Source of the DNA: Tannerellaceae bacterium
GTDB lineage: Bacteria; Bacteroidota; Bacteroidia; Bacteroidales; Tannerellaceae
Reading direction: 5' to 3'
Length of the DNA: 49,194 nt
NCBI GenBank assembly: GCA_021201565.1
Contig: JAJQES010000026.1
Span: 1 to 49,194 of the forward strand
Shown: positions 8,850-42,814 of the stretch, in pieces
Layout of the letters: each line of letters opens with the position of its first letter
How positions within the stretch are numbered: the first letter of the stretch is position 1
Notes under the pieces: generated by a model
Told to the model about the DNA's origin: nothing
Database searches by the model: none
What the model saw: the letters and a program-made list of their open reading frames with translations, nothing else
Translations under genes and position numbers: made by a program

Positions 8850-9091
8850 CGAAAAGGGTGCACCCTTTTCCTTAAAAGGATGCATCTTTTTCTCCATCCG
8901 GACGCACCGTTTCAGACCAAAGGGTGCACCCAATACAGACTTTACAGTCCCGGTATCCCAACCCAACGGGATACTGAAGCCAATTCATCGTTCCCGGTAT
9001 CCCATTCCACCGGCCCCGGTATCTCAATGAATTGAGACCGGTATCCCGATTCATTCAGATACCGGGGCTGGTGGAGATCTCCGGATTAGTG
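8850..9091. repeat. array of 22-bp-phased short palindromes / direct repeats
   Basis: GGGTGCACCC-type palindromes centred at 8860.5, 8882.5, 8904.5 and 8926.5. CCGGTATC starts at 8950, 8994, 9016 and 9038; inverted copies at 8968 and 9058. Confidence 0.75.
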
Positions 9092-9167: not shown

Positions 9168-9575
9168 AGGCCGTAGGCCTATCCTATGTTAGGCCCCGGC
9201 AACGCCGGGGTTTAGATGATACAGAAGATAGTTCGCTCCGTAGGAGCAGCATAGCATAATAGGAACCGGAGGGTAAACCCAACTATTTTAATTTATATAT
9301 TACTATGCTGGGCTTCCAGCCCGAAACATTTTATCCCCCCAGCGTTGCCCAATCGTGTTCAGAAGATTTAGAGTGCCAGCGGCACGGTTTATGATAGCCC
9401 GGTACGAAGTGCTGGGGTTGAGCAGATTGGCTCTTGTGAGTCCTGAAAGGACGACTGAAAACAGACACCCTGGCCCGTTTGTATTCTTAAGCCGTGCTTA
9501 CAGCACTAATGTCTAACAATATACTACTACCCAGGACGTTGTCCTGGGCTAACATAAGCCGTCCCTCCGGGACTT
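9168..9575. mobile_element. MITE-like non-autonomous element related to the ends of the IS4 element at 35226-36959
   Basis: Inverted terminal units at 9168-9232 and 9530-9575 are homologous to 35226-35290 and 36925-36959. Internal solo copy of the IS inner repeat at 9336-9368. No ORF. Confidence 0.6.
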
Positions 9576-9629: not shown

Positions 9630-10427
9630 TTACAGATTAAACGCTGTGACCAGATCATCCAGTTGCCGGTCGGTCATGCCTTCCGGCTCATACCCTGCCA
9701 TGCGGGCACTGAAAAAGATTTGAGCCGATTTACTAAGCGTATCAATCGCATCAAAACATTCGATAATATCATCCCCCACAGCCAGGATCCCATGTTTTTC
9801 CCAGAATACCACATCATGTTTTTCCAGTTGTTTGATAGTGGCCCGTGCCAGTTCCAGAGTACCCGGTATTTCATACGGTACAATTCCAATCCCGCGGGGT
9901 ACAATGATACGGCATTCGGGAATCATACTCCACAATAGCCGGGTAATCCGTTCCGAATCCAGGAAAGGTTTACAATGCGTCAATCCGATCAGGTCTGTCG
10001 GATGTGTATGGAGTACCACCCGGTTCTTCTTACCTGACGCACGCAGGTAGTTATGCATCATCAGGTGAGAAGGCAACTCCGATGTCGGAGGAATAAGCTG
10101 AGTCGCAATGATCTCAAACGAAGTTCCATCCGGAGAAATACGGATCAGCGATCCGTTACAGAACGCATCCCGGCACACATACCGCATCCGTTTCCCGGTT
10201 CCGGTCACAAAAAACACATGTCCGCACAGGGCTGTCACCGCCTCCTGTAAAGGAACGGGATCGCACAAAGCAGGCATCCCTCTCTCTTCTTCACTCAGCA
10301 GGTCAGTCACATTCACAGAGATATTCCCTCCGTTGCGTTCCGCCCATCCTTTTTCCCATAAATAACCGGCCACTTCCGAGATCCGCCCGATCTCCGCCAT
10401 CAATTCATTATTTGCTCGTATGTCCAT
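9630..10427 (-). CDS. rhaD: rhamnulose-1-phosphate aldolase
   Basis: Class II aldolase, 265 aa: ERNGGNISV, VLHTHPTDLI. Last gene of the rhaBATD string. Confidence 0.9.
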   Translation of the reverse strand: MDIRANNELMAEIGRISEVAGYLWEKGWAERNGGNISVNVTDLLSEEERGMPALCDPVPLQEAVTALCGHVFFVTGTGKRMRYVCRDAFCNGSLIRISPDGTSFEIIATQLIPPTSELPSHLMMHNYLRASGKKNRVVLHTHPTDLIGLTHCKPFLDSERITRLLWSMIPECRIIVPRGIGIVPYEIPGTLELARATIKQLEKHDVVFWEKHGILAVGDDIIECFDAIDTLSKSAQIFFSARMAGYEPEGMTDRQLDDLVTAFNL

Positions 10428-10433
10428 ATTTTT

Positions 10434-10552
10434 TAGTAGTTGGTAGTTAGTAGTTGGTAGTTAGTAGTAGACTTACTTTGCTCACTTATTTTTTTGTATT
10501 TCTACTAAGTGAGCACAGCGAACGTTCTACTACCTACCAACTACTAACTACC
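10434..10552. repeat. P-type long hairpin element (copy 1)
   Basis: Arms tagtagttggtagttagtagttggtagttagtagtag / ctactacctaccaactactaactacc around a conserved core (ttttgtatttctac ... gtgagc..agcgaacg). Fills the rhaT-rhaD spacer. Confidence 0.85.
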
Positions 10553-10559
10553 TCATTAT

Positions 10560-11582
10560 TTACAAATTCGGTATAATCAATGAAACAATCAGAATGGCCA
10601 TGCCTGTGACTAAGACAATCACGGTCTTTGTTCCGGAGCCTTTCCACTCTTTCAGCACAATCCCCCAGACATTACTGAAAATGACATTCAGGGACATCAG
10701 AATACTCCAGGAGAAAGCCAGCATAACCGGTGAACCGGTGAAATAACTTTTGCCCATTCCTAACCCGAAGAACTGGGAGTACCACAACACACCGGCCAAT
10801 GCACAGAACAGCACATTATTCATCAGGATATGGCCGGGAACAGAGAAATACTCTCTTCCTGTCTTATTTTTTATATTCTGATAAATACAGTAACAGGCAT
10901 TCGTCAGGAATCCTCCCATAGTGACCAACAGGATCACCGGATTCAGGGCAAACAGCTCATTGGCGCCTCCTGTAACAGCTTTTTCCAAAATAGCCGTTCC
11001 GGATTCCAGTCCCAGGTTAAAACAGGCACTCATCACCCCTGCCAGCAAAGCCACCAGTAACCCTTTCGTCAGGGCAAAGTCTTTAATAGCCGCCCGTTTT
11101 TCTTCCTCCGTCATATTCTTCGCCCGCAAACTACCGGCATAGCCAATCACAGCAATCCCGGCCAGTGTCACACACACACCAATCAACAGGATCAGGCCGT
11201 TACCACTGAACAGATCCATCCCACCAAACACGGCCGGGAGGAGCGTCCCGAAAGCCGAGCAGGTTCCCAGGGAAATACTTTGTCCCAGGGCAACGCCCAG
11301 ATAACGCATACTAAGCCCGAAGGTCAAACCACCAACGCCCCACAACACCCCGTATAAAAGAGGCATAGCGATGTTGGAGGTCCCCAACAAGCTGAAAAGT
11401 GTTTCCCCTTCCGGCACAGCTAACAGCGCACCTAAAAAAGGAAACACCAGCCAGGCAAACACTCCCTGGACCAGCCAGAAACACTCCCAACTCCAATCTT
11501 TAATCTTTTTGATCGGTACATAGGAACTACTCTGCCCAAAGCTGCCCAGCGCAATGATCAATAAACCTATCAGTATATTCAT
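10560..11582 (-). CDS. rhaT: L-rhamnose/proton symporter
   Basis: 340 aa, about 10 TM helices, RhaT-family size, operon context. Confidence 0.85.
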   Translation of the reverse strand: MNILIGLLIIALGSFGQSSSYVPIKKIKDWSWECFWLVQGVFAWLVFPFLGALLAVPEGETLFSLLGTSNIAMPLLYGVLWGVGGLTFGLSMRYLGVALGQSISLGTCSAFGTLLPAVFGGMDLFSGNGLILLIGVCVTLAGIAVIGYAGSLRAKNMTEEEKRAAIKDFALTKGLLVALLAGVMSACFNLGLESGTAILEKAVTGGANELFALNPVILLVTMGGFLTNACYCIYQNIKNKTGREYFSVPGHILMNNVLFCALAGVLWYSQFFGLGMGKSYFTGSPVMLAFSWSILMSLNVIFSNVWGIVLKEWKGSGTKTVIVLVTGMAILIVSLIIPNL

Positions 11583-11585
11583 TTT

Positions 11586-11737
11586 TCAATTGACTATGGA
11601 TAATTGACAATTGACCTTTCCTTCTCCCTCAGGGGAGAAACCAATCAACAATCTCTATCCCGGCAACAACAACCATATTCATACAAAGAGTTCCGGACTA
11701 AATAATTGTCAATTGTGCATTGTTAATTGTCAATTGA
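11586..11737. repeat. Q-type long hairpin element (copy 1)
   Basis: Arms tcaattgactatggataattgacaattgac / aataattgtcaattgtgcattgttaattgtcaattga with an ~85-nt centre. Fills the rhaA-rhaT spacer. Confidence 0.8.
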
Positions 11738-11743
11738 ATGGAT

Positions 11744-13000
11744 TTATCGTTTACCGGTTACCTCCTTTTCATATTCATGAATGCCCGGGATATAGGTTTC
11801 TCCTACCGGTACCCCATTCTGCAGGCAATACATATCCCACACAGCATTCCAGGGCAGGCTCTTCGCTTCTTCCTGCAAAGCCAGCCGTTCAAAGTAGTTG
11901 CCGTTCGCTTCATATTGCTGCAACAGGGCCGCGGGTTCCAGGAGAGCCTGTAAAAAGGCTTTCTGAGTTGCCCGGCAACCAACCACATACGCCCCGATAC
12001 GGTTTATAGTCGCATCAAAATAATCCAGACCAATATGAACACGGTCCAGGGCATTGCAACGGATAATCTCCCGGGCCAGGTCTGTCAGGTCATCATTGAG
12101 GATGACTACATGGTCACTGTCCCAACGGACAGGACGGCTCACATGCAACATAATCTCCGGCGTAAAGAGCAACAGAGACGATACCTTATCCGCCACACTC
12201 TCCGTCAGGTGGAAGTGCCCGGTATCCAGGGTCACGATCTTATTTTTCTTCGCTCCATAGCCCAGATAGAAGTCATAGGAACCTACCGTATAGCTTTCCA
12301 GGCCAATCCCAAACAATTTAGCTTCGATACAGTCTTTCATATAGTCATATTTCGTAGCAAAAATCTCATCCAGGGACTGTTCAAGGAGCGCACGGTATTT
12401 CAACCGGTTCGCCGGCACTTCCTTGCTTCCGTCATGCACCCACAGGTTCATCATACAGGGATCGTTCTGGAATTTTCCCATCTCTTCACTGATCAGGCGG
12501 CAACGTTTGGTATGTTCGATCCAGAAATTACGGATCTCCTCATCGGGATTAGCCAATGTCAGGTCACCACTTTTTGGATGTGAGAAAGAGGTACTGTTGA
12601 AATCCAGTTTCAGGTTATTCTCTTTGGCCCACTCCATCCAGCTTTGGAAATGCACAGGTTCCACTTCATCACGGTCTACTACTTTCCCCTGGAAATCCCC
12701 ATAGATTTCATGAAGGTTCAACCGGTGGGATCCCGGAATATAGGTCAACGCTTTTTTCACGTCCGCCCGCAATTCATCAATAGTTCGCGCACGTCCCGGA
12801 TAGTTACCCGTCACCTGGATCCCTCCGGAAAGAGCGCCCGCCTGTACTTCAAAACCATTGACATCATCTGCCTGCCAGCAGTGCAGAGAAAGGGATACTT
12901 TCTTCATATTTTCCAACGCCTGGTCCACGTCGACCCCCACAGCAGCATATCTCTCTTTTGCTACCTCAAATACTGTTTGAATAATGGATTCTTTTGTCAT
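11744..13000 (-). CDS. rhaA: L-rhamnose isomerase
   Basis: 418 aa. N-terminus VAKERYAAVGVDVDQALENMKKVSLSLHCWQADDVNGFE closely parallels enterobacterial RhaA. Confidence 0.95.
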   Translation of the reverse strand: MTKESIIQTVFEVAKERYAAVGVDVDQALENMKKVSLSLHCWQADDVNGFEVQAGALSGGIQVTGNYPGRARTIDELRADVKKALTYIPGSHRLNLHEIYGDFQGKVVDRDEVEPVHFQSWMEWAKENNLKLDFNSTSFSHPKSGDLTLANPDEEIRNFWIEHTKRCRLISEEMGKFQNDPCMMNLWVHDGSKEVPANRLKYRALLEQSLDEIFATKYDYMKDCIEAKLFGIGLESYTVGSYDFYLGYGAKKNKIVTLDTGHFHLTESVADKVSSLLLFTPEIMLHVSRPVRWDSDHVVILNDDLTDLAREIIRCNALDRVHIGLDYFDATINRIGAYVVGCRATQKAFLQALLEPAALLQQYEANGNYFERLALQEEAKSLPWNAVWDMYCLQNGVPVGETYIPGIHEYEKEVTGKR

Positions 13001-13032
13001 GATATTTTTATTTATAAGGATAATCTTCTTTT

Positions 13033-13155
13033 GAGTAGTTGGTAGTTAGTAGTACACTCACTCCGTTCGTTTAGTATAGACTTGCTTTACTCGTTTTGTA
13101 TTTCTACCAGGTGAGCGAAGCGAACGTACTACTAACTACTAACTACCAACTACTC
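13033..13155. repeat. P-type long hairpin element (copy 2), overlaps the rhaB 3' end
   Basis: Arms gagtagttggtagttagtagta / tactactaactactaactaccaactactc. Same core and orientation as copies 1 and 3. Confidence 0.85.
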
Positions 13156-14585
13156 TTCTGTCGTGCTTCCGGTAAAAACACCTCCGGCTTATACGCCTGG
13201 GCAATGAGGCGGCGCATGTCCCAGCGGTCGGCAACCAGGCCAGCGGCTTTGGCCTGCATCATGCAGTTACCGATGGCGGTTGCTTCGGAAGGGCCTGCCA
13301 CCACGGGCATACCAATCGCATTGGCTGTAAACTGATTCAGTAATTTATTTTTGGACCCTCCTCCTATGACATGTAATTTTTCAACCGGGAAAGGGGCCAT
13401 GGCTTTTAATAGTTCCAATACCTCTTTATAACGGGCCGCCAGGCTTCCGAAAATACAACGGACATATTCAGCATGGGTTTCCGGACAACACTGTCCACTC
13501 TCCCGGCAATGTTCCCTGATCGCTTCCACCATACTGGCCGGATTAGCAAAACGGGGATGGTCCGGATTTACCAGGGAACCAAAAGCGGATGCTTCTTCCG
13601 CCATGCTGACAATCCGGGAATAGTCATAGGAATGTCCCTCTTTCTCCCATTCCTTCCGGCACTGTTCCAGCAGCCACATACCAGTAATGTTTTTCAGGAA
13701 ACGGGTCGTGCCTTCTATCCCTCCTTCATTCGTAAAATTATTTTCAAAGGAAGCCGGGGTGATGATGGGTTGTTCCACCTCAATACCCATCAGGCTCCAG
13801 GTGCCACTGCTCAAATAAGCAAAGTTCGGATTCTCCGCAGGAACCGCCACCACTGCCGAAGCGGTATCATGGCCGGCCACCGCAATCACAGGAACCGGTC
13901 CCACCCCCGTTTCCGCGGCCAGTTTCCCGGTCAATGTGCCGATAACCGTTCCCGGCATCACTAACGGACGCAACAGGGAGGGTTTCACGCCGGCCGCTTC
14001 CAGCAACGAAACTTCAAATTGTTTGGTAACCGGATTTAATAGCTGGGAAGTGGAAGCATCTGTATATTCACACACCCGCACCCCTGTCAGCAGATAAGAA
14101 AGCAGGTCGGGAATAAACAGGATCTCCTCCGCTCCCTGTAATGGAGCAAACTTCTCCTGTCCGGCACGGAATAACTGGAACAAACTATTGAAATCCATCA
14201 TCTGAATACCGGTCCTTTTATATACCTCTTCACGGGAAACGATCCGGAAAAATTCTTCCGGAGCTCCCTCTGTATAAGGGTCCCGGTAAGCCCGGGGCAA
14301 TCCCAACAAAGAACCATCCGGAGCAATATATCCGAAATCAACACCCCAGGTATCAATGCCGATCGAATCAGGTTGGATGCCTTGCCGGCTGCATAGAGCT
14401 AAACTCTCTTTCAGCGCTTCATACAATCCGAATATATTCCAATAGTATTTTCCATGCAATTCCAGGATGGAATTAGGGAAGCGGTGTATCTCCCGCATTT
14501 CAAATCTGACACCCTCCAACATGCCCAGTACAGCACGTCCGCTGGTAGCTCCTATATCAAAGGCTAAAAAGTTGTGTTTCTTCAT
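13143..14585 (-). CDS. rhaB: rhamnulokinase (FGGY family)
   Basis: 480 aa. FDIGATSGRAV N-terminal phosphate-1 motif, FGGY C-terminal GGGSKN. First gene of the operon. Confidence 0.9.
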   Translation of the reverse strand: MKKHNFLAFDIGATSGRAVLGMLEGVRFEMREIHRFPNSILELHGKYYWNIFGLYEALKESLALCSRQGIQPDSIGIDTWGVDFGYIAPDGSLLGLPRAYRDPYTEGAPEEFFRIVSREEVYKRTGIQMMDFNSLFQLFRAGQEKFAPLQGAEEILFIPDLLSYLLTGVRVCEYTDASTSQLLNPVTKQFEVSLLEAAGVKPSLLRPLVMPGTVIGTLTGKLAAETGVGPVPVIAVAGHDTASAVVAVPAENPNFAYLSSGTWSLMGIEVEQPIITPASFENNFTNEGGIEGTTRFLKNITGMWLLEQCRKEWEKEGHSYDYSRIVSMAEEASAFGSLVNPDHPRFANPASMVEAIREHCRESGQCCPETHAEYVRCIFGSLAARYKEVLELLKAMAPFPVEKLHVIGGGSKNKLLNQFTANAIGMPVVAGPSEATAIGNCMMQAKAAGLVADRWDMRRLIAQAYKPEVFLPEARQKSSW

Positions 14586-14615
14586 GGTTATTTGAATAGT
14601 TTATTACAACATGGG

Positions 14616-14623
14616 CAAAAATA
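14616..14623 (-). promoter_or_regulatory. candidate -7 box of the rhaBATD promoter
   Basis: Minus strand reads TATTTTTG (Bacteroidetes TAnnTTTG consensus), 30 nt upstream of the rhaB ATG. Confidence 0.45.
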
Positions 14624-14636
14624 TCGGTAAAACAGT

Positions 14637-14644
14637 TATATTTG
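14637..14644 (+). promoter_or_regulatory. candidate -7 box of the rhaR promoter
   Basis: TATATTTG, 36 nt upstream of ATG 14680. It lies inside the longer 14611 ORF, which argues for the downstream start. Confidence 0.45.
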
Positions 14645-14679
14645 CTTACCAAAATGATTTTAAACCTTTCAAATTTGAC

Positions 14680-15567
14680 ATGAAAAACCTACCCAAAGAC
14701 CAGCTACGTTATTTAGCCATCAGCTCCTCAGACGAAGAGTGGGGCATTGTGGTGACAACCATCGGCTACCAGTTTATTGCCCCGCAAAGCCAATATCCCT
14801 TGTCCGGCCATCCGGACAATTATAATTTCCAGCCGCAAACCGGACGTATCCTGAATGAATACCAATTAGTGTATATCACAAAAGGAAGTGGTTATTTCTC
14901 CTCCCAATCCTGTAAAATGCAACGAATACACGCCGGCACCATGATCCTGTTGTTTCCGGGGGAATGGCATACCTATTATCCGGATAAGGATACGGGATGG
15001 GATGAATACTGGGTAGGGTTCCGGGGCATGCATATTGACCGCCGGGTGGAAAAACAATTCTTTTCTATTGAGGACCCTTTACACGATATAGGGGTCAGTT
15101 CTACGATCGTACAGTTATATGAGGATATTCTGCGGATCGCTTCCGCGGAGAAAACGGGCTATCAACCCATGATCTCCAGCATTGTCCTCCATATTTTAGG
15201 CTCTGTCTACTATAAAAAACGAAATAATTCCTTTACGAATACGTATGTGGTCGACAAGATCAATGAGGCTCGTTTATTGATGAAAGAACGGGTAGAAGAT
15301 CCGCTGACTCCCGAAGAGATTGCCGGCCTGCTGGGCCTGGGTTATTCCTGGTTCAGACGCATGTTCAAAGAATATACAGGCGTTTCCCCAGCCCAATACC
15401 AGGCCCAGCAACGGCTGCTGCGCGCAAAAGAATTACTGACAGCCTCTTCTATGAATATCAGTGAAATTGCCTATAGCCTCCGCTTTGAAAATGCCGGGCA
15501 ATTCTCCACCTTCTTTAAAAAGAAAGAGGGCGTCACTCCCTCAGAATTCAGGGAAAGGACGCATTAA
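14680..15567 (+). CDS. rhaR: AraC-family transcriptional regulator of rhamnose utilisation
   Basis: Cupin-like N-terminal half plus AraC HTH (ISEIAYSLRFENAGQFSTFFKKKEGVTPSEFR). Divergent from rhaB. The ORF track starts at 14611; I prefer ATG 14680 (295 aa). Confidence 0.8.
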   Translation: MKNLPKDQLRYLAISSSDEEWGIVVTTIGYQFIAPQSQYPLSGHPDNYNFQPQTGRILNEYQLVYITKGSGYFSSQSCKMQRIHAGTMILLFPGEWHTYYPDKDTGWDEYWVGFRGMHIDRRVEKQFFSIEDPLHDIGVSSTIVQLYEDILRIASAEKTGYQPMISSIVLHILGSVYYKKRNNSFTNTYVVDKINEARLLMKERVEDPLTPEEIAGLLGLGYSWFRRMFKEYTGVSPAQYQAQQRLLRAKELLTASSMNISEIAYSLRFENAGQFSTFFKKKEGVTPSEFRERTH

Positions 15568-15582
15568 TATAAATAGTCTCAC

Positions 15583-15765
15583 TCTTTCAGGTTTGCAACC
15601 TGGAAGCGAAACAATAAGAAGTTTGTAACTTCCATAATCGGGTAGCGGCTATAAAAATAGGATCGTATAATGCGTCTTTCAGCCGCAGGAAGTTACAAAT
15701 GGAACATCCCGGTTTATCGGGGTTTCTCATTGTTTCTGCTCCGGATTATAAACCCGGAGCAAGTT
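15583..15765. repeat. composite structured repeat E1
   Basis: 33-nt left flank identical to 18965-18997. Right flank tgtttctgctccgg.tta.aaacccg.agca is shared. The internal ~107 nt is the reverse complement of the E2 interior. Confidence 0.8.
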
Positions 15766-16633: not shown

Positions 16634-16733
16634 GGTTCCCGCGAAGGCGGGAATCGCATTAGAACCGACCCGAGTCACCATATAAAAGAATAATAAAACC
16701 TGCTCTTATGCGGTCCCCGCCTTCGCGGGGAAC
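16634..16733. repeat. inverted pair of V-type hairpin units (MITE-like, ~100 bp)
   Basis: ggTTCCCGCgaagGCGGGAAtcgcattag ... ctgctcttatGCGGTCCCCGCcttcGCGGGGAAC. Confidence 0.7.
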
Positions 16734-18964: not shown

Positions 18965-19169
18965 TCTTTCAGGTTTGCAACCTGGAAGCGAAACAATGGA
19001 AAGCCCCGATAAACCGGGATGTTCCATTTGTAACTTCCCTGCGGCTGAAAGACGCATATTTATTTGTATATTTTTATATAGCCGCTTTGCGACTATGGAA
19101 GTTATAAATCAAAGATTCCGGTTTACCGGAACAACAGGTGTTTCTGCTCCGGGTTAGAAACCCGAAGCA
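18965..19169. repeat. composite structured repeat E2
   Basis: See E1: same flanks, interior inverted, plus an extra hairpin TTCCGGtttaCCGGAA. Confidence 0.8.
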
Positions 19170-32035: not shown

Positions 32036-32107
32036 TATATTTGTAACTCATAGTTAAGGTTTTGGTTAATGGAAGGGGTGACTTGTGATAAGCCGCCCTT
32101 TTTTTAT
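32036..32107 (+). ncRNA. candidate small RNA, copy 1 (promoter box, conserved 25-nt block, terminator)
   Basis: TTTG at 32012, TATATTTG at 32036-32043, tcatagttaaggttttggttaatgg at 32048-32072, then hairpin plus T7. Homologous unit at 44974-45034. Confidence 0.4.
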
Positions 32108-32943
32108 TGTAAACTATACAGATAGCGTATCTCCTCTTCCCACAGGCTTTCATCCGGTGTTTCCAGAATCAGGGGAATCTCTTCAAACCGGAGATCGGTC
32201 ATAATAAATTTGAACGTATCCAGTCCCATACATCCCTTTCCAATATTATCATGGCGGTCTACCCGGGTCCCCAGTTCCTTCTTTGAATCATTGATATGCA
32301 TTCCCTTCAAATATTGAATCCCTACGATCTGCTCAAACTTTTCAAAAGTGACCGTAAAGCTATCCAATGCACACAGGTCATACCCGGAAGCAAGTGTATG
32401 GGCAGTATCTATACACACCCCCACCCGGCTTTTATCTTCTACCTTATCTATAATCATCGCAAGCTGCTCAAATTCATGGCCCAGATTAGACCCCTGTCCG
32501 GCTGTATTTTCTATCACAGCAGTCACTCCCTCCGTCAATTCCAATACCCGGTTAATCGCTTCCGCGATCTTATCCAGGCACTCGTCAACCCCAATCCGGT
32601 TGAGGTGGCTGCCCGGATGGAAATTCAACCGGTCTAATCCCAATTGTTCACACCGTTGCATTTCATCCAGAAAGGATTCATACGACTTTTGCCAGCCATC
32701 CTCATCCGGATGCCCCAGGTTGATCAGGTAACTATCATGCGGGAGGATCTGTTTAGCCGTATAGCCAAACTGCTCACAACGTTCCTTAAACAGGTCAATA
32801 CTTTTCGGGGTCAAAGCCGGGGATTTCCATTGGCGCTGATTCTTAGTAAACAGGGCAAATGCCTTCGCTCCTATCGCATGCGCATTTAAAGGAGCATTCT
32901 CCACTCCACCCGATGCACTTACATGTGCTCCTACGTATTTCAT
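32104..32943 (-). CDS. nfo: endonuclease IV
   Basis: [14 protein letters not shown]-terminus as in enterobacterial Nfo; TIM-barrel AP endonuclease 2 family, 279 aa. Confidence 0.95.
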
Positions 32944-32957
32944 AATTTCATATTTTT

Positions 32958-33088
32958 GAGTAGTTAGTAGTTGGTAGTTAGCAGTACACTCACTTCGTTC
33001 GTTTAGTAGAAACTCACTTTACTCATTTTGTATTTCTACCAAGTGAGCGAAGCGAACGTACTACTAACTACCAACTACTAACTACTAA
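32958..33088. repeat. P-type long hairpin element (copy 3)
   Basis: Arms gagtagttagtagttggtagttagcagta / tactactaactaccaactactaactacta. Core nearly identical to copy 2. Confidence 0.85.
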
Positions 33089-33094
33089 ATTTTA

Positions 33095-33565
33095 TTATTC
33101 CTCCACATTACATCCATGAAAATGAAATTTCTCTCTGGCCTGGTCCTGAGGGATCGTGAAATAAACCATATCAGACCGGGAACATATTTCACCGGCAGAA
33201 TTATAGATCTCGCTCTCTATAAAGACGACCTGCCGCTTTTGTTCTTTGATACGTCCCCGGATGACCAATTCCGGTTCCTCCGTAGAGATACTTTTCATAA
33301 ATTTAGCTTCCAGCCGGGAAGTGACTCCCGTAGTCTGAAGTTTACGAACGACAATCCAGCCGCCCAGCTCATCCATGAGCGTACTTTGAATGCCACCATG
33401 CAAGGTATGTAGCCATCCCTGGTAAATAGCTTTCGGTTTCCAGATAGCAACAATATCCTCTCCATCTTCATAAAACTCCATGTGCAAACCGGATGGATTT
33501 GCAGGAGAACAGGCAAAGCACATATAGCCGTCCAAACCTTCCCAGGGATTAATGATCTTCTTCAT
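33095..33565 (-). CDS. PaaI-like hotdog-fold thioesterase
   Basis: 156 aa. MCFACSPANPSGLHMEF N-terminal motif typical of this thioesterase group. Confidence 0.7.
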   Translation of the reverse strand: MKKIINPWEGLDGYMCFACSPANPSGLHMEFYEDGEDIVAIWKPKAIYQGWLHTLHGGIQSTLMDELGGWIVVRKLQTTGVTSRLEAKFMKSISTEEPELVIRGRIKEQKRQVVFIESEIYNSAGEICSRSDMVYFTIPQDQAREKFHFHGCNVEE

Positions 33566-34941: not shown

Positions 34942-35029
34942 CCTGTTCACCCGGGTGAGCCACCTGTTCCACCCGGGTGAAGGACCTGACCCACCCGGAT
35001 GGAACAGGTGCCCCACCCGGGTGAACTGA
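34942..35029. repeat. 4 x 22-bp perfect-period tandem repeat, each unit carrying CACCCGGGTG
   Basis: Palindrome centres at 34952.5, 34974.5, 34996.5 and 35018.5. Confidence 0.85.
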
Positions 35030-35408
35030 AGATGTTTCCTGTAACTCTATGAACCTTTACAATAGAGAGGTTCAACATTCACACAAAGGTTCTCCTTATA
35101 TGGATAGGGAGATGTCCGCTTACACACGGGTCGTTTGAACCGGACTTACAGTCGGCAAATACTGCTGCATCCATTCCCCCGGGCGATGCTCCCGGGCTGT
35201 TAAGTTCTCTTTTATGATTTGTATGAAGTCCCGGAGGGACGTTCTATGTTAGCCCAGGGCAACACCCTGGGTAATAGATGATAAGAGAAAAGGAGTGCTG
35301 AATCGTAGATCGGCCTTAGCCAAAGCACGGCATAATAAAATAGCGACAGATTAATAGATTGTAATTTATGCCGTCCTTACAGGACTTAATAAAAATAATG
35401 TATTCAAA

Positions 35409-36932
35409 CCCAGGGTGTTGCCCAGTGATGTTCAGAAGATGGGCATGTTGCTGTTATTGGCCTAAAGAGAAAGACGTTTTTTTTCTTTGGGCTATGCCAG
35501 AGGCTTTTTTCTAGGGATAATGTAAATCCGTTTTCTTTAAATCCCCTCCACTTTGTATCACCATAATGGCTAATACCAGGTGTTCGAGTTCTATTCCCAT
35601 TCTTCTTATGGCACTCCTATAGCCCAGCAGGTTTTCCCGTTTATAAATCATTACTAGCATCGCTGTAATTAATGTCATATATAAAACCACCTGGATGCCA
35701 TTTTCATTTAAAGAAAGGAAGTGGGAGAAGTTTAACTCTTGCTTTAAAAAACGAAAGAATACCTCTATATCCCATCTGCGTTTATAGATCAAGGCAATCT
35801 CATTTGCACTCATATCAAAACAGTTTGTAATAAGTGTAATGGGTTTTTCAGCTCCTTGTGGTAAAAAACGAATCACCCGGAAGAGTTCCTCTACCACTTG
35901 TTGTCTATTTACTTCTTTACCATTCTTTCCTACCTCTTTTACTTTCTTATATAGTTTTACGTCCTGGTCAAAGAGTAACCTGCCACTTTCAAAACAAACG
36001 CCCTGTACAGAGCTTTCTTCTATAACTTTTAATTTACGGTTATCCTGCAGACGACCCACAAAGAGTAAACCCTTTTGGTTTTTCATTTCTTTAAATGCCT
36101 CGGCCGAACTCTGTCCCCTGTCAATAATGTAAACCCGGGCATGATCCGGATGTTTTTTTATGTGAGAGAGTATATTCTCTGGTAAAGCTACGCTTTCAGA
36201 GAGATAGGTGTTTTCTTTGTGTACACGTGCCAAAGAACCGAACATACCGTCAAAATTAATTGTAAATTTGAGTAGTTTTCGTTTTGCAGCCGCATTACCT
36301 GAGCTAAGTCCTTCTTTCAGACGGTTGGAGACATCCCTGACCAAAGTACTGTCCACACGCTCAAGGTAGAGATTGGCTACCTCTTTTTTTGTATATAAAG
36401 ACGAAAAATAGGTATAAATACTACTATAAGCTCTTTCAAAAAAGTCCACATTTATCACCCCAAGACGCTGAGATATAGCACTGTGAGAGATCGTGCCCTT
36501 ACCTTTATAATGAAAGATAGAACGAAAAAATGGTGAGCCAAAGGCTTCGCTCAGACCACGTTGACTTAAACGGGGGACTCTAAGTAACCCATAGATGAGA
36601 AGATAGAACATTAGTTTTCCGGATAATACTTTTGAACAGTAATCCACATGGGTCTGATCAGATAACAGGCAAAGTTCTTCATCTGGTATATACCCTAGAA
36701 TCTCCCCTAATGAGATTTTATGATTATATAAATGGCCACTCTTTTTCATCGATGACAAAAATAAACCTATCTTCTTTTTTTAAAGAAATCAAAAACCCAT
36801 ATTTATCAACAATTTATTAGTTCCACTGTTTGTAACTGCCATTTTTTTTGCAACTGGATTTTCAAACATATTTTTCTCGAACAAATAACTCAACTTTAAT
36901 ATCTTCTGAACATCACTGGGCAACGCCCTGGG
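35409..36932 (-). mobile_element. IS4-family insertion sequence (core, 1524 bp); outer repeat pair would extend it to 35226-36959
   Basis: 32-bp inverted repeats cccagggtgttgcccagtgatgttcagaagat / atcttctgaacatcactgggcaacgccctggg (31/32) bracket the transposase gene. A further perfect 35-nt inverted pair sits at 35226-35260 / 36925-36959. Confidence 0.7.
35511..36758 (-). CDS. IS4-family DDE transposase
   Basis: YKRRWDIEVFFRFLK = Y-(2)-R-(3)-E-(6)-K signature of IS4. The gene looks visibly AT-richer than its surroundings. Confidence 0.9.
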   Translation of the reverse strand: MSSMKKSGHLYNHKISLGEILGYIPDEELCLLSDQTHVDYCSKVLSGKLMFYLLIYGLLRVPRLSQRGLSEAFGSPFFRSIFHYKGKGTISHSAISQRLGVINVDFFERAYSSIYTYFSSLYTKKEVANLYLERVDSTLVRDVSNRLKEGLSSGNAAAKRKLLKFTINFDGMFGSLARVHKENTYLSESVALPENILSHIKKHPDHARVYIIDRGQSSAEAFKEMKNQKGLLFVGRLQDNRKLKVIEESSVQGVCFESGRLLFDQDVKLYKKVKEVGKNGKEVNRQQVVEELFRVIRFLPQGAEKPITLITNCFDMSANEIALIYKRRWDIEVFFRFLKQELNFSHFLSLNENGIQVVLYMTLITAMLVMIYKRENLLGYRSAIRRMGIELEHLVLAIMVIQSGGDLKKTDLHYP

Positions 36933-36975
36933 CTAACATAGAACGTCCCTCCGGGACTTAAAACGGAGAATTTAC

Positions 36976-37136
36976 CCCCGATAAACCGGGATGTTCCATT
37001 TGCAATCTTGGCCGGAGGGGATCTCCGGATCCCCGACTGCACGAGTATCAGGATCTGTGATCCGATTCACCGGTTATTTCAAAAATACCAGTTGGTCAGA
37101 GGGGACCCCGATAAACCGGGATGTTCCATTTGCAAT
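36976..37136. repeat. two identical 31-nt direct copies of module M (ccccgataaaccgggatgttccatttgcaat)
   Basis: 36976-37006 and 37106-37136. The same module lies inside E1 (15688-15722, inverted) and E2 (19004-19038). Confidence 0.85.
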
Positions 37137-37399
37137 CCCCGGCTAACGGGTATTAGAATCTGTGATTCTAAAAATAAATAAATACCGAATAAACCGGGAC
37201 GTATGTGTTAGTAAAGCGGATCACAGATCCTTATACTCAACAGGCGGGGATTACAAATCCCCTTCAACCAACAGACTATTTATTCTTAAGTTGACGGCAT
37301 TGGGCAATACTGTCGGTTATCGCCTTCGCAGGGAACAAATGTGTGGTTTTTCTGAATGAGATAACTTTTGTAGGACGATACAGTGGTCCCCCAATCCTA

Positions 37400-39996: not shown

Positions 39997-40551
39997 TTAT
40001 GAGGGCTGTTTTTCTTTCGGTTTGCGATCAAAAAACGGGTTTTTACTGGAAGCACTGACCGGAATGGCCATGACACAGGAAGCCTCTCCCAGATATTTTA
40101 ACCGTTGTGCCGCCCATCCGGCGCTAAACATCACCCGGGTATCTACACGCAGGTCTGCCGCAGTCGCACAAGCTGACCCGACAGCAATTCCCACATCTAC
40201 CGTATTGATTGCGCAGGGAACCGGTCCTGGCTTAGCTGTACAGAGCGGATATCCGCAATGCCCACAATTCAGGTGCTGCACCTGCTGAGCAGTCCCGACC
40301 AGGATAATTGCTCCTGCCTGAAGAATATTCTCTGCATCCCGCAGAATAAACTTCAGGCCGGTCTCCTCCGCCAGTTCAAACATATAGGAAGACAAACGGG
40401 GAATATCCTCTCCGGTCAGCATACCAATCTCAATAATATCCAAACCTTTCCCTTTAGGGGCCGTACGGGCTGCCGTCATCATTTGCCGGGCCACATGCAG
40501 AATATGTGCATTCCGCGTCTCTCTTTCGTTCTCAAACACTTCTGTAAGCAA
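39997..40551 (-). CDS. DUF2148 ferredoxin-domain protein
   Basis: TAPKGKG ... CGHCGYPLC pattern, 184 aa. TTG start abuts the Q2 repeat, so the start is uncertain. Confidence 0.65.
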   Translation of the reverse strand: MLTEVFENERETRNAHILHVARQMMTAARTAPKGKGLDIIEIGMLTGEDIPRLSSYMFELAEETGLKFILRDAENILQAGAIILVGTAQQVQHLNCGHCGYPLCTAKPGPVPCAINTVDVGIAVGSACATAADLRVDTRVMFSAGWAAQRLKYLGEASCVMAIPVSASSKNPFFDRKPKEKQPS

Positions 40552-40716
40552 TTGCTAATTGACAATGGACAATTGACAATGGATGTCAATACCCAGGACC
40601 AATCAGTAGTTAATAATCTTTTGACCCCGTAAAATTACAACATTTTAAATAATTGACAATTGACAAAAAACAGTTGACAATGAAAATTGTCCATTGTCAA
40701 CTGTCCATTGTCAAAT
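40551..40716. repeat. Q-type long hairpin element (copy 2)
   Basis: attgctaattgacaatggacaattgacaatggatgtcaat ... attgtccattgtcaactgtccattgtcaaat, plus a local hairpin cagttgacaatg/cattgtcaactg. Confidence 0.8.
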
Positions 40717-42814
40717 AGTTCGTCATCTCCTCCGTAGGGCGAAAATCAAACGGGGGATACTTATAGATACTGAAACGGGGTTCGGTTTGTCCTTCACAAT
40801 ATCCCCAGATAGAGGCATACTCTTTTATGGATTCCCCCATCTCCCTCAATTGCCGGAGATAAGCCGCGACCGATTTATTTTCAACAATATACACTTCTCC
40901 CATCCGGTCAATGATGGGACTATGGGCACGGCTGCCGTCATGGTCAAACTTTGACACCCGCTTCCCATCGGCGGTAATGCCCACTGTTACAAATGTCATA
41001 CTTTTACCAATAGCCGGCAGATTCAATACATTCCGGTCCGTGCCGGCAAAAAGCAATTTGTTTTCTTTCAGGAAGCGGGGCAAATAGTTCCATAGTGGCT
41101 GCTTAGTACGGATCAATTGATGCAATTCTTCCCGTTTTGCCATCGGCATATAGCCAAACACTTTCTCCTCCCGGCTTTCCTGCAGGGAACGGCTGTTAGG
41201 CGCATACATGGCATAATTTTCCTGATAGCCTTTTACGGAGAAGGTATAATAACATACCACTCCGGCCGAATTCAACGCCTGCCGTAGTTTAGCCGTATGC
41301 CCCCGCCGGGAAGCCGTAACAGTGAAAACCAGTTGATTGGTAATAGTCCACCCGGCCTCCTGAATAGCCCGAATGGCACTGAACGCTTCCGGGGTCAGTT
41401 CCAAAGGAGACTGAAAATGGGTCTGAATATAAAATTGTTTTATTCCTACCGAAACTCCTTTCTGTTTAAAATCCCGCAGGATCTCAACGAGTTCGGGAGT
41501 AATCCGCTGAGGGAGATAAGCCAATAAACGGGAGCCCAATCGTACCCGTTGTATTTCTGTGTACTTCTCTCCGTCGGCCCTTCCTTCATTCGCTTTTTTC
41601 TTCCGGATAGCCATCCGGTAAACCGCATCCAGGATCTTACGCAGCGTCGCATTCTGGCTCATCAATGCATCTCCACCGGTAATCAAAATATCCCGTAACC
41701 GGGAATCATGTTCAAAATAAGACATCAACCGCCGCAACCGCAGATCCCACGTATCTTTAGGTTTGAGGGCTTCCAGGTCAAAATTCAACCGGCGGCTCTG
41801 AAAATCATACATACGCTGGCAGGAAGCACACAATCCTCCGCAGGCACGCCCCATAGAATCAGGAATCAGGATGGCCACTTCCGGATACCGCCTGTGGATA
41901 TTATGTCCCTCCGGCAGAAACCAACCGGCCGCATTGGGTTTACCCGGTTCTACTTCGTCTTCTTTTTCCCAGGCTTTTATCTGGCCGTATGTATCGACCA
42001 ACTCTTCGGAATAGAGAATATAACTCCGGATCGTGCGGTCATCGTATCCTTCTTCATACGGATTCAACAGGGACAAATAGTAAGGAGTCACAAAAAAAGG
42101 CATTTGCTTTTTCCGGCCGCGCAACAACGTATTCATCGTCTCTTCCGGTAAAGTATTTCCCAAAAAGGCATTTAATTCGGTGGGACTTTTAATAGCCATT
42201 GCCAGGTGAAAGCGGGCACTTTTCCACCATTCTTCTACCTGATTGTATTTTTCTTCCCGGGTCATGCCGGGAGCAAACTGGTATTTGGAGGAAGGGGCAT
42301 GCCGTTTCTCTATTTTGCGGATAAGTCCTTCTATAATGCGGTGTTTATTCTTTTGCCGGATCTCCTGCACTTCCGGGTCCAATCCTGCCGGCCAACGCTG
42401 CATCTGCTTCTTCAACCATCCGCGGTCAGGTATAACCGGCTCCTCCTGTTCCAGTAATTCAAACTGATGGTACAGATCCAGAAACAAATCGGGAGAGACC
42501 GGCTCTTTCAGCTCACTCCGCAGGAAAAGCCACAACCAGGTGATTGTAAAAAGAGAAGAGCGTTCGCCGGTGGATAATTCATCCACTTCTGTATGATCAT
42601 ACTCAATAAACCGCAAAATCCGTTCAATGACCGCCTCTTTCTCTGTTCCGCCGCTTCCGGATAGATGAAAAGAATGGACATACGAACGCAAATTATCTTT
42701 AAATGTTTCTATATCCATACTTTGTATTGCTAATTCAAATAACGCCGGAAAGCGATTTTTATATTGTATTAACAACTGAGAATTAGTAAGATCCAACAGA
42801 CTTCTTTTTACCAT
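40697..42814 (-). CDS. KamA-family (lysine 2,3-aminomutase-like) radical SAM protein, long form
   Basis: CGGLCASC = CxxxCxxC at about residue 320 of 705, with KamA-like context. Large N- and C-terminal extensions. Confidence 0.8.
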   Translation of the reverse strand: MVKRSLLDLTNSQLLIQYKNRFPALFELAIQSMDIETFKDNLRSYVHSFHLSGSGGTEKEAVIERILRFIEYDHTEVDELSTGERSSLFTITWLWLFLRSELKEPVSPDLFLDLYHQFELLEQEEPVIPDRGWLKKQMQRWPAGLDPEVQEIRQKNKHRIIEGLIRKIEKRHAPSSKYQFAPGMTREEKYNQVEEWWKSARFHLAMAIKSPTELNAFLGNTLPEETMNTLLRGRKKQMPFFVTPYYLSLLNPYEEGYDDRTIRSYILYSEELVDTYGQIKAWEKEDEVEPGKPNAAGWFLPEGHNIHRRYPEVAILIPDSMGRACGGLCASCQRMYDFQSRRLNFDLEALKPKDTWDLRLRRLMSYFEHDSRLRDILITGGDALMSQNATLRKILDAVYRMAIRKKKANEGRADGEKYTEIQRVRLGSRLLAYLPQRITPELVEILRDFKQKGVSVGIKQFYIQTHFQSPLELTPEAFSAIRAIQEAGWTITNQLVFTVTASRRGHTAKLRQALNSAGVVCYYTFSVKGYQENYAMYAPNSRSLQESREEKVFGYMPMAKREELHQLIRTKQPLWNYLPRFLKENKLLFAGTDRNVLNLPAIGKSMTFVTVGITADGKRVSKFDHDGSRAHSPIIDRMGEVYIVENKSVAAYLRQLREMGESIKEYASIWGYCEGQTEPRFSIYKYPPFDFRPTEEMTNYLTMDS

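Follow-up and report, generated by a model that had tools for sequence, protein, structure and literature searches.

Heptad-armed hairpin repeats in the spacers of a Tannerellaceae rhamnose operon resemble dispersed palindromic elements with rapid turnover

Each of the three intercistronic spacers of the rhaB-rhaA-rhaT-rhaD operon on a contig of a Tannerellaceae bacterium (GenBank assembly GCA_021201565.1, contig JAJQES010000026.1, positions 1 to 49,194; this whole stretch of 49,194 nucleotides (nt) is called the window) is filled by a long hairpin, two of one type (P1 and P2) and one of another (Q1). This arrangement raises the question of whether the hairpins belong to the operon as regulatory devices or are repeats that have settled in it. 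Comparison with related genomes favors the second answer: with a probability of roughly 0.68, P and Q are non-autonomous, dispersed palindromic repeats of one Tannerellaceae (Bacteroidales) clade, which resemble MITEs (miniature transposable elements with inverted repeats) or the paired repetitive extragenic palindromic (REP) units known as REPINs and whose arms consist of heptanucleotide microsatellites. As recent acquisitions, they give the impression of selfish DNA with rapid turnover and not of a regulator built into the operon.

Anatomy of the P and Q elements

Gene calls based on NCBIfam place the three rha spacers at 10428-10559, 11583-11743, and 13001-13142, exactly as the initial annotation of the window had given them, and inverted-repeat scans confirmed its statement that they are almost wholly occupied by P1, Q1, and P2 (Table 1). 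The P1 hairpin starts 7 nt past the rhaT stop codon and ends 5 nt short of the rhaD ATG. P2 extends over the final 13 nt of rhaB and contains the rhaB stop codon within its arm; the terminal codons of RhaB (Ser-Ser-Trp-stop) are P2 arm sequence, and the protein is 480 amino acids long in the window versus 473-475 in relatives. Two further copies lie outside the operon. P3, a P-family member of 134 nt that forms a near-perfect palindrome, fills the spacer between a hotdog thioesterase gene and nfo. Q2 separates a KamA-like radical-SAM gene from the DUF2148 gene that follows it; it covers the 3' end of the upstream KamA-like gene and supplies its stop codon. All five copies are situated between co-directional genes. 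With total lengths of 120-170 nt and arms of 21-57 nt that are 73-100% complementary, they fall within the range of sizes and terminal inverted repeats described for MITEs.

The heptad periodicity ascribed to the arms was likewise recovered, as Tandem Repeats Finder reported period 7 in all ten arms of P1-P3, Q1, and Q2. The P arm word GTAGTTRGTAGTTRGTAG is matched with at most two mismatches 12 times in the window (0.01 expected) and the Q arm word 15 times (0.12 expected); for both words, plus-strand matches are always found in the left arm and minus-strand matches always in the right arm. The earlier description of arms placed around a centre of 55-90 nt holds as far as the inverted heptad arms are concerned, but fails for P, since P2 and P3 are palindromic along nearly their whole length and do not consist of arms plus an unrelated centre. 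Similarity between Q1 and Q2 is confined to the arms. Their centres are unrelated to each other, and no further copy of either was found in any sequence compared in this analysis.

P1, P2, and P3 have both arms and core in common (80% mean column identity), and P as a whole is represented by seven copies in five genomes: the window and four related sequences, L001, L131, L133, and L136. The copies of L131 and L133 occupy the orthologous thioesterase-nfo spacer and that of L136 the rhaB-rhaA spacer. A full-length alignment of the seven bears out the proposed conserved core, as all are colinear on the sense strand in the order 5' arm, variable 5' core, loop AAATAYAAAA, ...AAGTGAGTYTCTACTAA, purine-rich module (GTGAGCNNAGCGAACG or its transition variant ACGAACGAAGTGAGTG), and 3' arm. 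This core of about 60 nt is common to unlinked loci and to different genomes. Core-only local alignments had made the copies of L131, L133, and L136 appear inverted relative to the window; this was rejected on the full-length alignment, the apparent inversion being caused by the palindromic module. The P-like elements of L131 and L133 are built with 8-nt units, AAGTAGTC.

The abundance throughout the genome that had been predicted agrees with two observations. A Logan short-read contig spanning rhaA-Q1-rhaT has its two ends within P1 and P2, which fits a repeat present in many copies, and heptad-armed elements occur at a density of about one per 7-10 kb in the window and two stretches from related metagenome-assembled genomes (MAGs). 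Among GTDB representative genomes, a strict 22-base pattern for the P core was found in one Tannerellaceae MAG only; as the pattern would miss the L131-type subfamily, this result is no gauge of the distribution of P. Viral contigs yielded no match to the P core or to either GGTAGTT arm arrangement. The Q arms match a single "viral" contig of 4 kb (L130; IMG/VR IMGVR_UViG_3300037400_000760), in which direct and inverted AATTGAC/AATGGAC arrays are densely packed and a 111-nt run turns into AATTCAT units.

Table 1. Positions of the elements, genes, and other repeats discussed (window coordinates unless another sequence is named)
Feature	Position	Strand	Basis
rhaB-rhaA-rhaT-rhaD operon, host of P2, Q1, and P1	9630-14585	minus	
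rhaB (rhamnulokinase)	13143-14585	minus	NCBIfam
rhaB stop codon (TAG)	13143-13145		
rhaA (L-rhamnose isomerase)	11744-13000	minus	NCBIfam
rhaT (RhaT symporter)	10560-11582	minus	NCBIfam
rhaD (rhamnulose-1-phosphate aldolase)	9630-10427	minus	NCBIfam
AraC-family regulator, divergent from the rha operon	14611-15567	plus	
P1, hairpin repeat, rhaT-rhaD spacer	10433-10552	minus	inverted-repeat and tandem-repeat scans
P1 5' arm	10525-10552		
P1 3' arm	10433-10471		
P1 conserved module GTGAGCACAGCGAACG	10509-10524	plus	
Q1, hairpin repeat, rhaA-rhaT spacer	11585-11738	minus	inverted-repeat and tandem-repeat scans
Q1 arm (AATTGAC)n	11585-11615		
Q1 arm (GTCAATT)n	11704-11738		
P2, hairpin repeat, rhaB-rhaA spacer	13033-13155	minus	inverted-repeat scan
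P3, P-family palindrome	32956-33089	minus	inverted-repeat scan
nfo	32104-32943		
Hotdog thioesterase gene	33095-33565		
Q2, AATTGAC/AATGGAC-armed hairpin repeat	40549-40718	minus	inverted-repeat and tandem-repeat scans
KamA-like radical-SAM gene	40697-42814		
Insertion sequence (DDE_Tnp_1)	35511-36758		
Acido-Lenti-1-like copies	9530-9574; 35227-35271; 36925-36964	plus; minus; 	
40-nt inverted pair around DDE_Tnp_1	35221-35260; 36925-36964		
Two hairpins downstream of rhaD	8856-8931; 9006-9075		
Third hairpin-repeat family	37043-37258; L127 5750-5986; L001 3712-3820; L125 end; L136 6009-6252		
Dispersed repeat of about 28-32 nt	36976-37007; 37106-37137; 15696-15723; 19004-19030	;; minus; 	
Tandem repeat of 22-nt unit	34942-35026		
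Hairpin downstream of msrA	16638-16729; L123 886-977		
C-run/G-run hairpin, rhaA-rhaT spacer	L125 1323-1452; L127 7255-7376; L136 4851-4985		
Near-perfect 100-nt hairpin	L001 3615-3714		
Q-type arrays on viral contig	L130 2049-4039		
rhaB split into three open reading frames	L137 3555-4961		
rhaT frame shift after A-run	L137 6278-6400		

Filled and empty sites among related operons

RhaA of the window is 90-92% identical to that of several Tannerellaceae MAGs and 85-87% identical to that of Massilibacteroides and Parabacteroides, which places the window in Tannerellaceae. For neither RhaD nor the thioesterase of the window is an identical protein on record. The rha spacers were compared with those of five related assemblies and one outgroup. 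In the closest relative (L123, RhaA 99% identical), whose contig ends in rhaT and for which the comparison covers the first two spacers, the rhaB-rhaA spacer holds a different heptad hairpin with AAGAAGT-type arms and P-like modules, and the rhaA-rhaT spacer of 24 nt is empty. The rhaB-rhaA, rhaA-rhaT, and rhaT-rhaD spacers contain, respectively, a composite P-like element, a C-run/G-run hairpin, and another sequence in L124/L125 (92%); a mini GTAGTT hairpin with another repeat, a C/G-run hairpin, and a perfect hairpin with 34-nt arms in L127 (91%); and a P copy, a C/G-run hairpin, and a composite hairpin in L136 (90%). L137 (MAG GCA_021204405.1, 90%) serves as the element-free comparator, with spacers of about 45, 17, and 97 nt. 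Its rhaB is split into three open reading frames (ORFs) and its rhaT shifts frame after an A-run, which looks like the result of homopolymer sequencing errors rather than real pseudogenes. The two spacers examined in the outgroup (L135; rhaB-rhaA 42 nt, rhaA-rhaT 92 nt) do not contain a heptad hairpin.

The C-run/G-run hairpin (CCCCCCAACCCCCTAAAGGGGGGG…) is the same 120-135-nt element in L125, L127, and L136; that of L136 folds with -77 kcal/mol, and the L124 MAG contig is broken inside it. Another hairpin with 26-nt arms (CCCGCGAAGGCGGGAATCGCATTAGA…), located downstream of msrA, is 99% conserved between the window and L123, in contrast to the polymorphic P and Q.

Filled and empty states of the same site, as known from MITEs, were found in four cases. 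About 137 nt of Q1 (approximately 11601-11738) are absent from L123, the window reading AATCCAT[about 137 nt]TCCATAGTCAATTGAAAAATG and L123 AATCCATTCCATTGTCAATTGAAAAATG; a TCCAT direct repeat is present at both Q1 junctions, and in the empty L123 site this repeat is already tandem (TCCATTCCAT). The Q2 site is empty in L131, where 4 nt separate the KamA-like stop codon from the DUF2148 GTG start versus about 165 nt in the window, and no duplication is evident. Conversely, L131 and L133 have a P-like element of about 150-190 nt in their nfo-C69 spacer that is absent from the window. Finally, the rhaB-rhaA spacer is filled by P in the window and L136 and empty in L137. The operon-specific role implied by the initial annotation is not upheld by this comparison: Q1 is gone at 99% RhaA identity, L137 lacks elements altogether, and other relatives carry unrelated hairpins. 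The spacers of L137 and L123 that lack elements show that the specific P and Q elements are not needed for the rha operon.

The arms themselves behave like microsatellites. At the thioesterase-nfo locus, the left arm comprises eight TTAGTAG units in L133 versus three in L131, these two also have unequal unit numbers in another GGTAGTT-armed hairpin, whose centre is not the same, and the two arms of P1, and likewise of P2, differ by whole heptads. Such changes are what would be expected from a purely local origin, in which a seed heptad beside a stop codon expands by slippage, is mirrored by intrastrand template switching, and spreads by gene conversion without any transposition. The arm-like sequences already present in coding ends and the recurrence of the same arms around unrelated centres at 115 or more loci of 35-70% GC (both described below) also fit this scenario, as does the excess of heptameric repeats in bacteria mentioned in two reports (PMC4679880, citing Mrazek 2007; PMC4692102). 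However, the centres of Q1 and Q2 measure 92 and 107 nt where the relatives' spacers measure 24 and 4 nt, and slippage in such spacers cannot generate unique sequence of this length. Q1 and Q2 consequently arrived as units, centre included. Together with the P core, which recurs at unlinked loci of different genomes, this makes a purely local origin distinctly improbable.

Under the mobile-repeat interpretation, the alignments show that the elements were inserted, centre included, into spacers that had been very short (4-45 nt). Insertion took place at the upstream stop codon or within a few bases of it, with the downstream A-rich leader left intact. After insertion, the arms gain or lose whole heptads, and over the time in which species diverge, elements are acquired, disappear, and give way to others.

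Hairpins in the transcript

Folding each element, which had been proposed as a check, gave stable hairpins for P, with energies of -50 to -75 kcal/mol and z-scores of -5.9 to -13.1 (P1, -57.9 kcal/mol, z -10.2; P2, -50 kcal/mol, z -5.9; P3, -74.8 kcal/mol, z -13.1). Folding of Q is weak (z about -2) in segments of about 150 nt that trim its outer arms, but once the arms are complete, Q1 and Q2 reach -44 and -57 kcal/mol (Q2, -57.1). A frame check substantiated the reported stop codons in all three frames of the P arm, read inward, and every P and Q element contains stops in all six frames. A terminator scan flagged none of the P and Q copies of the window. On the mRNA strand, P1, P2, P3, and Q1 are followed by an A-rich tract or leader in place of a U-tract, so that read-through transcription is to be expected for P and Q.

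The promoter consensus of Bacteroidetes differs from the sigma-70 type. For this reason, and because their number equals that in shuffled sequences, sigma-70-like promoter matches (TTGACA) in the Q1 arms were discounted. Searches of P and Q against Rfam returned no gathering-level match and no family; the sub-threshold matches were to hairpins of plant and animal microRNA precursors, at 23-43 bits against cut-offs of 70-119.

Given the read-through expected in the absence of a U-tract, P and Q would be co-transcribed within the rha mRNA and fold into stems of 25-55 base pairs (bp). These stems might be cleaved by a double-strand-specific RNase of the RNase III type or might shield upstream RNA from 3' exonucleases, while insertion into spacers of 4-24 nt would presumably abolish translational coupling of the neighboring cistrons. 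Stops in all frames would allow an element to occupy the 3' end of a gene without creating read-through fusions. Under the mobile-repeat interpretation, such RNA effects would be by-products tolerated by selection in the rha operon and would not amount to a conserved regulatory device.

Alternatively, the hairpins may be selected intra-operon RNA elements, one per junction, that set processing, differential stability, or translational decoupling regardless of the repeat family that provides them. Indeed, a long hairpin is found at every examined rha junction of the window, L124/L125, L127, and L136, empty junctions being limited to rhaA-rhaT of L123 and all of L137; none of the hairpins has a U-tract, the A-rich leader is spared in every case, and precedents exist in REP, ERIC, and Correia elements (PMC2229807, PMC3733652). 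The orientation of P relative to transcription, claimed to be uniform, is the same in all seven aligned copies and, by eye, in the P-like variants. Only four or five of these loci are independent, which gives a chance of about 0.06-0.12 for uniform orientation by (1/2)^(n-1), and in the window itself an effect of transcription cannot be told apart from one of chromosome strand because all flanking genes are on the minus strand. Against selection for RNA elements stand the lack of such elements in L137 (with its apparent homopolymer frameshifts in rhaB and rhaT) and in the outgroup, the absence of Q1 at 99% RhaA identity, and the presence of the same kinds of elements between convergent genes and outside operons. 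In addition, none of 24 pairs of the P consensus hairpin covaries, a result that is uninformative by itself, and the numbers of G-U pairs in sense and antisense (P1, 1/0; P2, 5/5; P3, 6/3; L001, 1/2) are inconsistent between copies, so that strand asymmetry was rejected as a sign of RNA-level selection; taken together, no positive signature of selection on RNA structure was obtained. Since about one-third of the intergenic regions of the window carry some hairpin repeat, three of three in the rha operon is only mildly unusual. Selection for a hairpin at each junction is therefore considered unlikely.

An action at the DNA level, with the heptads serving as sites for a regulator or nucleoid protein, as cruciform or replication-pause sites, or as terminators, appears very improbable. 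Three heptads span 21 bp, or about two helical turns, REPs of Escherichia coli bind gyrase and IHF (as cited in PMC3733652), and one GGTAGTT-armed hairpin of L133 and L131 is followed by a T-run. However, the P and Q copies of the window lack a U-tract and were not flagged as terminators, heptad number and sequence vary freely between relatives, and no candidate binding protein was identified.

GGTAGTT arms, known repeat classes, and mobilization

A metagenome search with the pattern GTAGTTGGTAG-N70-100-CTACCAACTAC retrieved at least 120 stretches with at least 115 distinct elements. Their loci range from 35 to 70% GC and their centres are unrelated to P or to each other. One host encodes a Bacteroidetes-type SecA; in another, Pgi is closest, at 78% identity, to proteins of Burkholderiales/Betaproteobacteria MAGs, with Xanthobacteraceae MAGs about equal, all of them Proteobacteria. 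Judged from these proteins, GGTAGTT-armed elements are present in at least two phyla. Among the matches listed, 29 elements have convergent neighbors, 31 have co-directional ones, and 6 have divergent ones (60 of the 66 classified are not divergent). Of 148 incoming frames with a length of at least 90 codons, again among the matches listed, 76 have their stop codon within the arm (TAG in 73) and another 37 no more than 10 nt upstream of it; these fractions are approximate because some frames in high-GC DNA are spurious. For unselected inverted heptad pairs with stop-capable units at the same loci, the C-poor, stop-bearing strand is nearly always the 5' arm in a small, partly non-independent sample.

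These data invite a broader explanation, according to which heptad-armed hairpins form a self-propagating class that crosses phyla and homes to gene 3' ends, with the arms as its active part. Iterated GTAG-type tags might be recognized by a hairpin-specific enzyme similar to HUH transposases or REP-associated tyrosine transposases (RAYTs), or the arms might provide portable homology for template switching. The same GGTAGTT arms would then be found around unrelated centres in Bacteroidota and Proteobacteria, the stop-bearing, G-rich strand would always be the 5' arm, and the first TAG would often be the host stop; within operons, the elements might act as "punctuation," placing a stop in every frame together with a processing hairpin. 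We regard a class of this breadth as quite unlikely.

The likeness to REP, BIME, and ERIC elements that had been noted is apt with respect to co-directional or convergent placement, donation of TAG stop codons, and presence/absence polymorphism. REPs tagged with GTAG are located between unidirectional or convergent genes, often as inverted pairs, and often donate a TAG stop (Di Nocera 2013, PMC3733652). As in REP dimers or REPINs, in which inverted units about 20-100 bp apart form a larger hairpin (PMC3733652; Bertels and Rainey 2011, PMC3116915), P and Q consist of inverted units; all five window copies lie between co-directional genes, and P2 and Q2 supply stops. However, their arms are tandem heptads, not 20-40-bp palindromes, and the palindrome is the whole element of 120-170 nt, for which reason P and Q are not strict REPs. 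All P heptads, the outermost ones among them, contain GTAG, although in base-paired form and with a copy every 7 nt; Q arms contain neither GTAG nor CGTC. In a survey of REPs, GTAG types were not reported from Bacteroidetes, only CGTC types (PMC3733652). No RAYT gene (for a REP-associated tyrosine transposase) is known for the genomes that carry P and Q.

Correia/NEMIS, ERIC/IRU, and RUP elements share with P and Q a length of 100-200 bp, terminal inverted repeats, a position in spacers between genes or within operons, the occurrence of both filled and empty sites, and long stem-loops (PMC2229807). Co-transcribed stem-loops of this kind have RNA-level consequences, NEMIS/Correia being RNase III targets and ERIC altering mRNA stability, and stops in all frames are known from RUP and the 155-bp Correia element (Delihas 2008, PMC2229807). 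In contrast to these MITEs, the arms of P and Q are microsatellites of variable length and not fixed terminal inverted repeats (TIRs), and neither TA nor any other clear target-site duplication is evident. The TIR of the only insertion sequence (IS) of the window (DDE_Tnp_1), CCCAGGGTGTTGCCCAGTGATGTTCAGAAGAT, bears no relation to the P and Q arms, and no parent IS was thus found in the window. As sequence similarity is lacking as well, P and Q do not belong to any named MITE family.

Heptamer arrays have been described before. Xanthomonas genomes contain 70-75 convergent pairs of GGGAATC heptamer arrays each, which are transcribed, located mostly between aligned ORFs and rarely between divergent ones, and placed so that they overlap a stop codon or lie at most 50 bp from one (Rehm et al. 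2015, PMC4692102). Like P and Q, they consist of tandem 7-nt units in two convergent arrays capable of forming a stem-loop (PMC4692102). The heptads of P and Q (GGTAGTT/TAGTAGT and AATTGAC/AATGGAC) differ from those of Xanthomonas in lacking G runs of three or more and hence quadruplex potential; moreover, P possesses a conserved core of about 60 nt, filled/empty polymorphism is demonstrated here, and the host belongs to the Bacteroidales. TAACTGA arrays, which directly precede start codons in Beggiatoaceae, in cyanobacteria, and in five Bacteroidetes, among them a member of the Bacteroidales, are likewise intergenic, end a few nt before starts, have a stop-bearing unit, and show 7-nt indels between strains (MacGregor 2015, PMC4679880). 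Unlike P and Q, they are direct repeats (169 sets, one inverted) of a different unit, without hairpin or core (PMC4679880). None of the papers searched for the arm strings contains them or describes P or Q. The view that the family is undescribed thus stands for the sequences, which are without match in Rfam or the papers searched, and not for the architecture, given the published heptamer pairs (PMC4692102, PMC4679880). The novelty is best filed as the combination of microsatellite arms with a conserved core in an already known class of small palindromic dispersed repeats.

Regarding mobilization of P and Q as non-autonomous repeats, candidates are a transposase that acts in trans on DNA hairpins and template switching for which the homologous arms serve as primers, and the iterated GTAG of the P arms, which recalls the recognition tag of RAYTs (PMC3733652), may be a lead. 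Several points weigh against the mobile-repeat interpretation. No transposase related to P or Q was found in the window, and no RAYT (Y1/HUH transposase) gene was present among the 30 of 40 ORFs of at least 150 amino acids covered there. Clear target-site duplications and fixed termini are missing. Identical arms occur with unrelated centres both within Tannerellaceae and across phyla, which one mobile family cannot explain. The native coding end at the Q2 site (TTATCAATAGACAAGTAA) resembles the Q2 arm (TTGACAATGGACAGTTGA), and (C/G)AGTAGT forms the end of rhaB in the window as well as in L124, L127, and L136, three of the five relatives; both may be hints of homology-guided insertion or of local seeding of arrays. 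In four of five related lineages, nearly every rha spacer holds some hairpin, which, together with the uniform orientation of P, leaves room for selection on the presence of a hairpin. Furthermore, every RNA-level effect attributed to P and Q above is an inference.

If the mobile-repeat interpretation is correct, the clade represents a compact natural experiment in which the same catabolic operon exists with zero, one, or three different hairpin elements. Translation initiation in Bacteroidales works without Shine-Dalgarno pairing, and the effects of 25-55-bp hairpins on mRNA processing and translational coupling could be tested directly in this order. Inverted GGTAGTT arrays at stop codons in DNA of 35 to 70% GC would tie the long-noted, unexplained excess of heptamers to the biology of REP- and MITE-like elements and offer a concrete pattern for finding the responsible enzyme or mutational mechanism. 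A dedicated mobilization mechanism behind GGTAGTT arms at stops across phyla would, if real, raise their importance further. In practical terms, elements of the P and Q type break short-read assemblies and alter annotated gene ends.

Other repeats were observed in the same genomes. Two gathering-level Rfam matches to Acido-Lenti-1 RNA (47.5 and 41.7 bits) and a third similar copy are present in the window. A 40-nt inverted pair, 95% complementary and coinciding or overlapping with two of these copies, brackets the DDE_Tnp_1 gene outside its 32-nt terminal repeats, and in this genome the motif has more the look of a piece of an IS end, or of a MITE derived from one, than of an independent small RNA. 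The 837-nt region downstream of rhaD contains, near another Acido-Lenti-1-like copy, two long hairpins with arms of 31 and 32 nt that are 74-88% complementary. The window and several related MAGs have in common a third hairpin-repeat family, marked by the motifs GGGGATTTGTAATCCCC and GGATCTGTGATCC, which in L127 and L136 is located in rha spacers. A dispersed repeat of about 28-32 nt (…CCCCGATAAACCGGGATGTTCCATTTGCAAT…) has four copies of 100% identity in the window, and an intergenic region beside the IS contains 3.9 copies of a 22-nt tandem unit, CCTGTTCCACCCGGGTGAACCA, with nested palindromes around CACCCGGGTG. L001 carries a 100-nt near-perfect hairpin whose ACGCAGA-like arm words (GGAACGCAGACTACGCAGAGAGCGCAGAGGAACGCAGA) repeat with a period of about 9-10 nt, and the periodic-arm hairpins of this clade are thus not confined to period 7.

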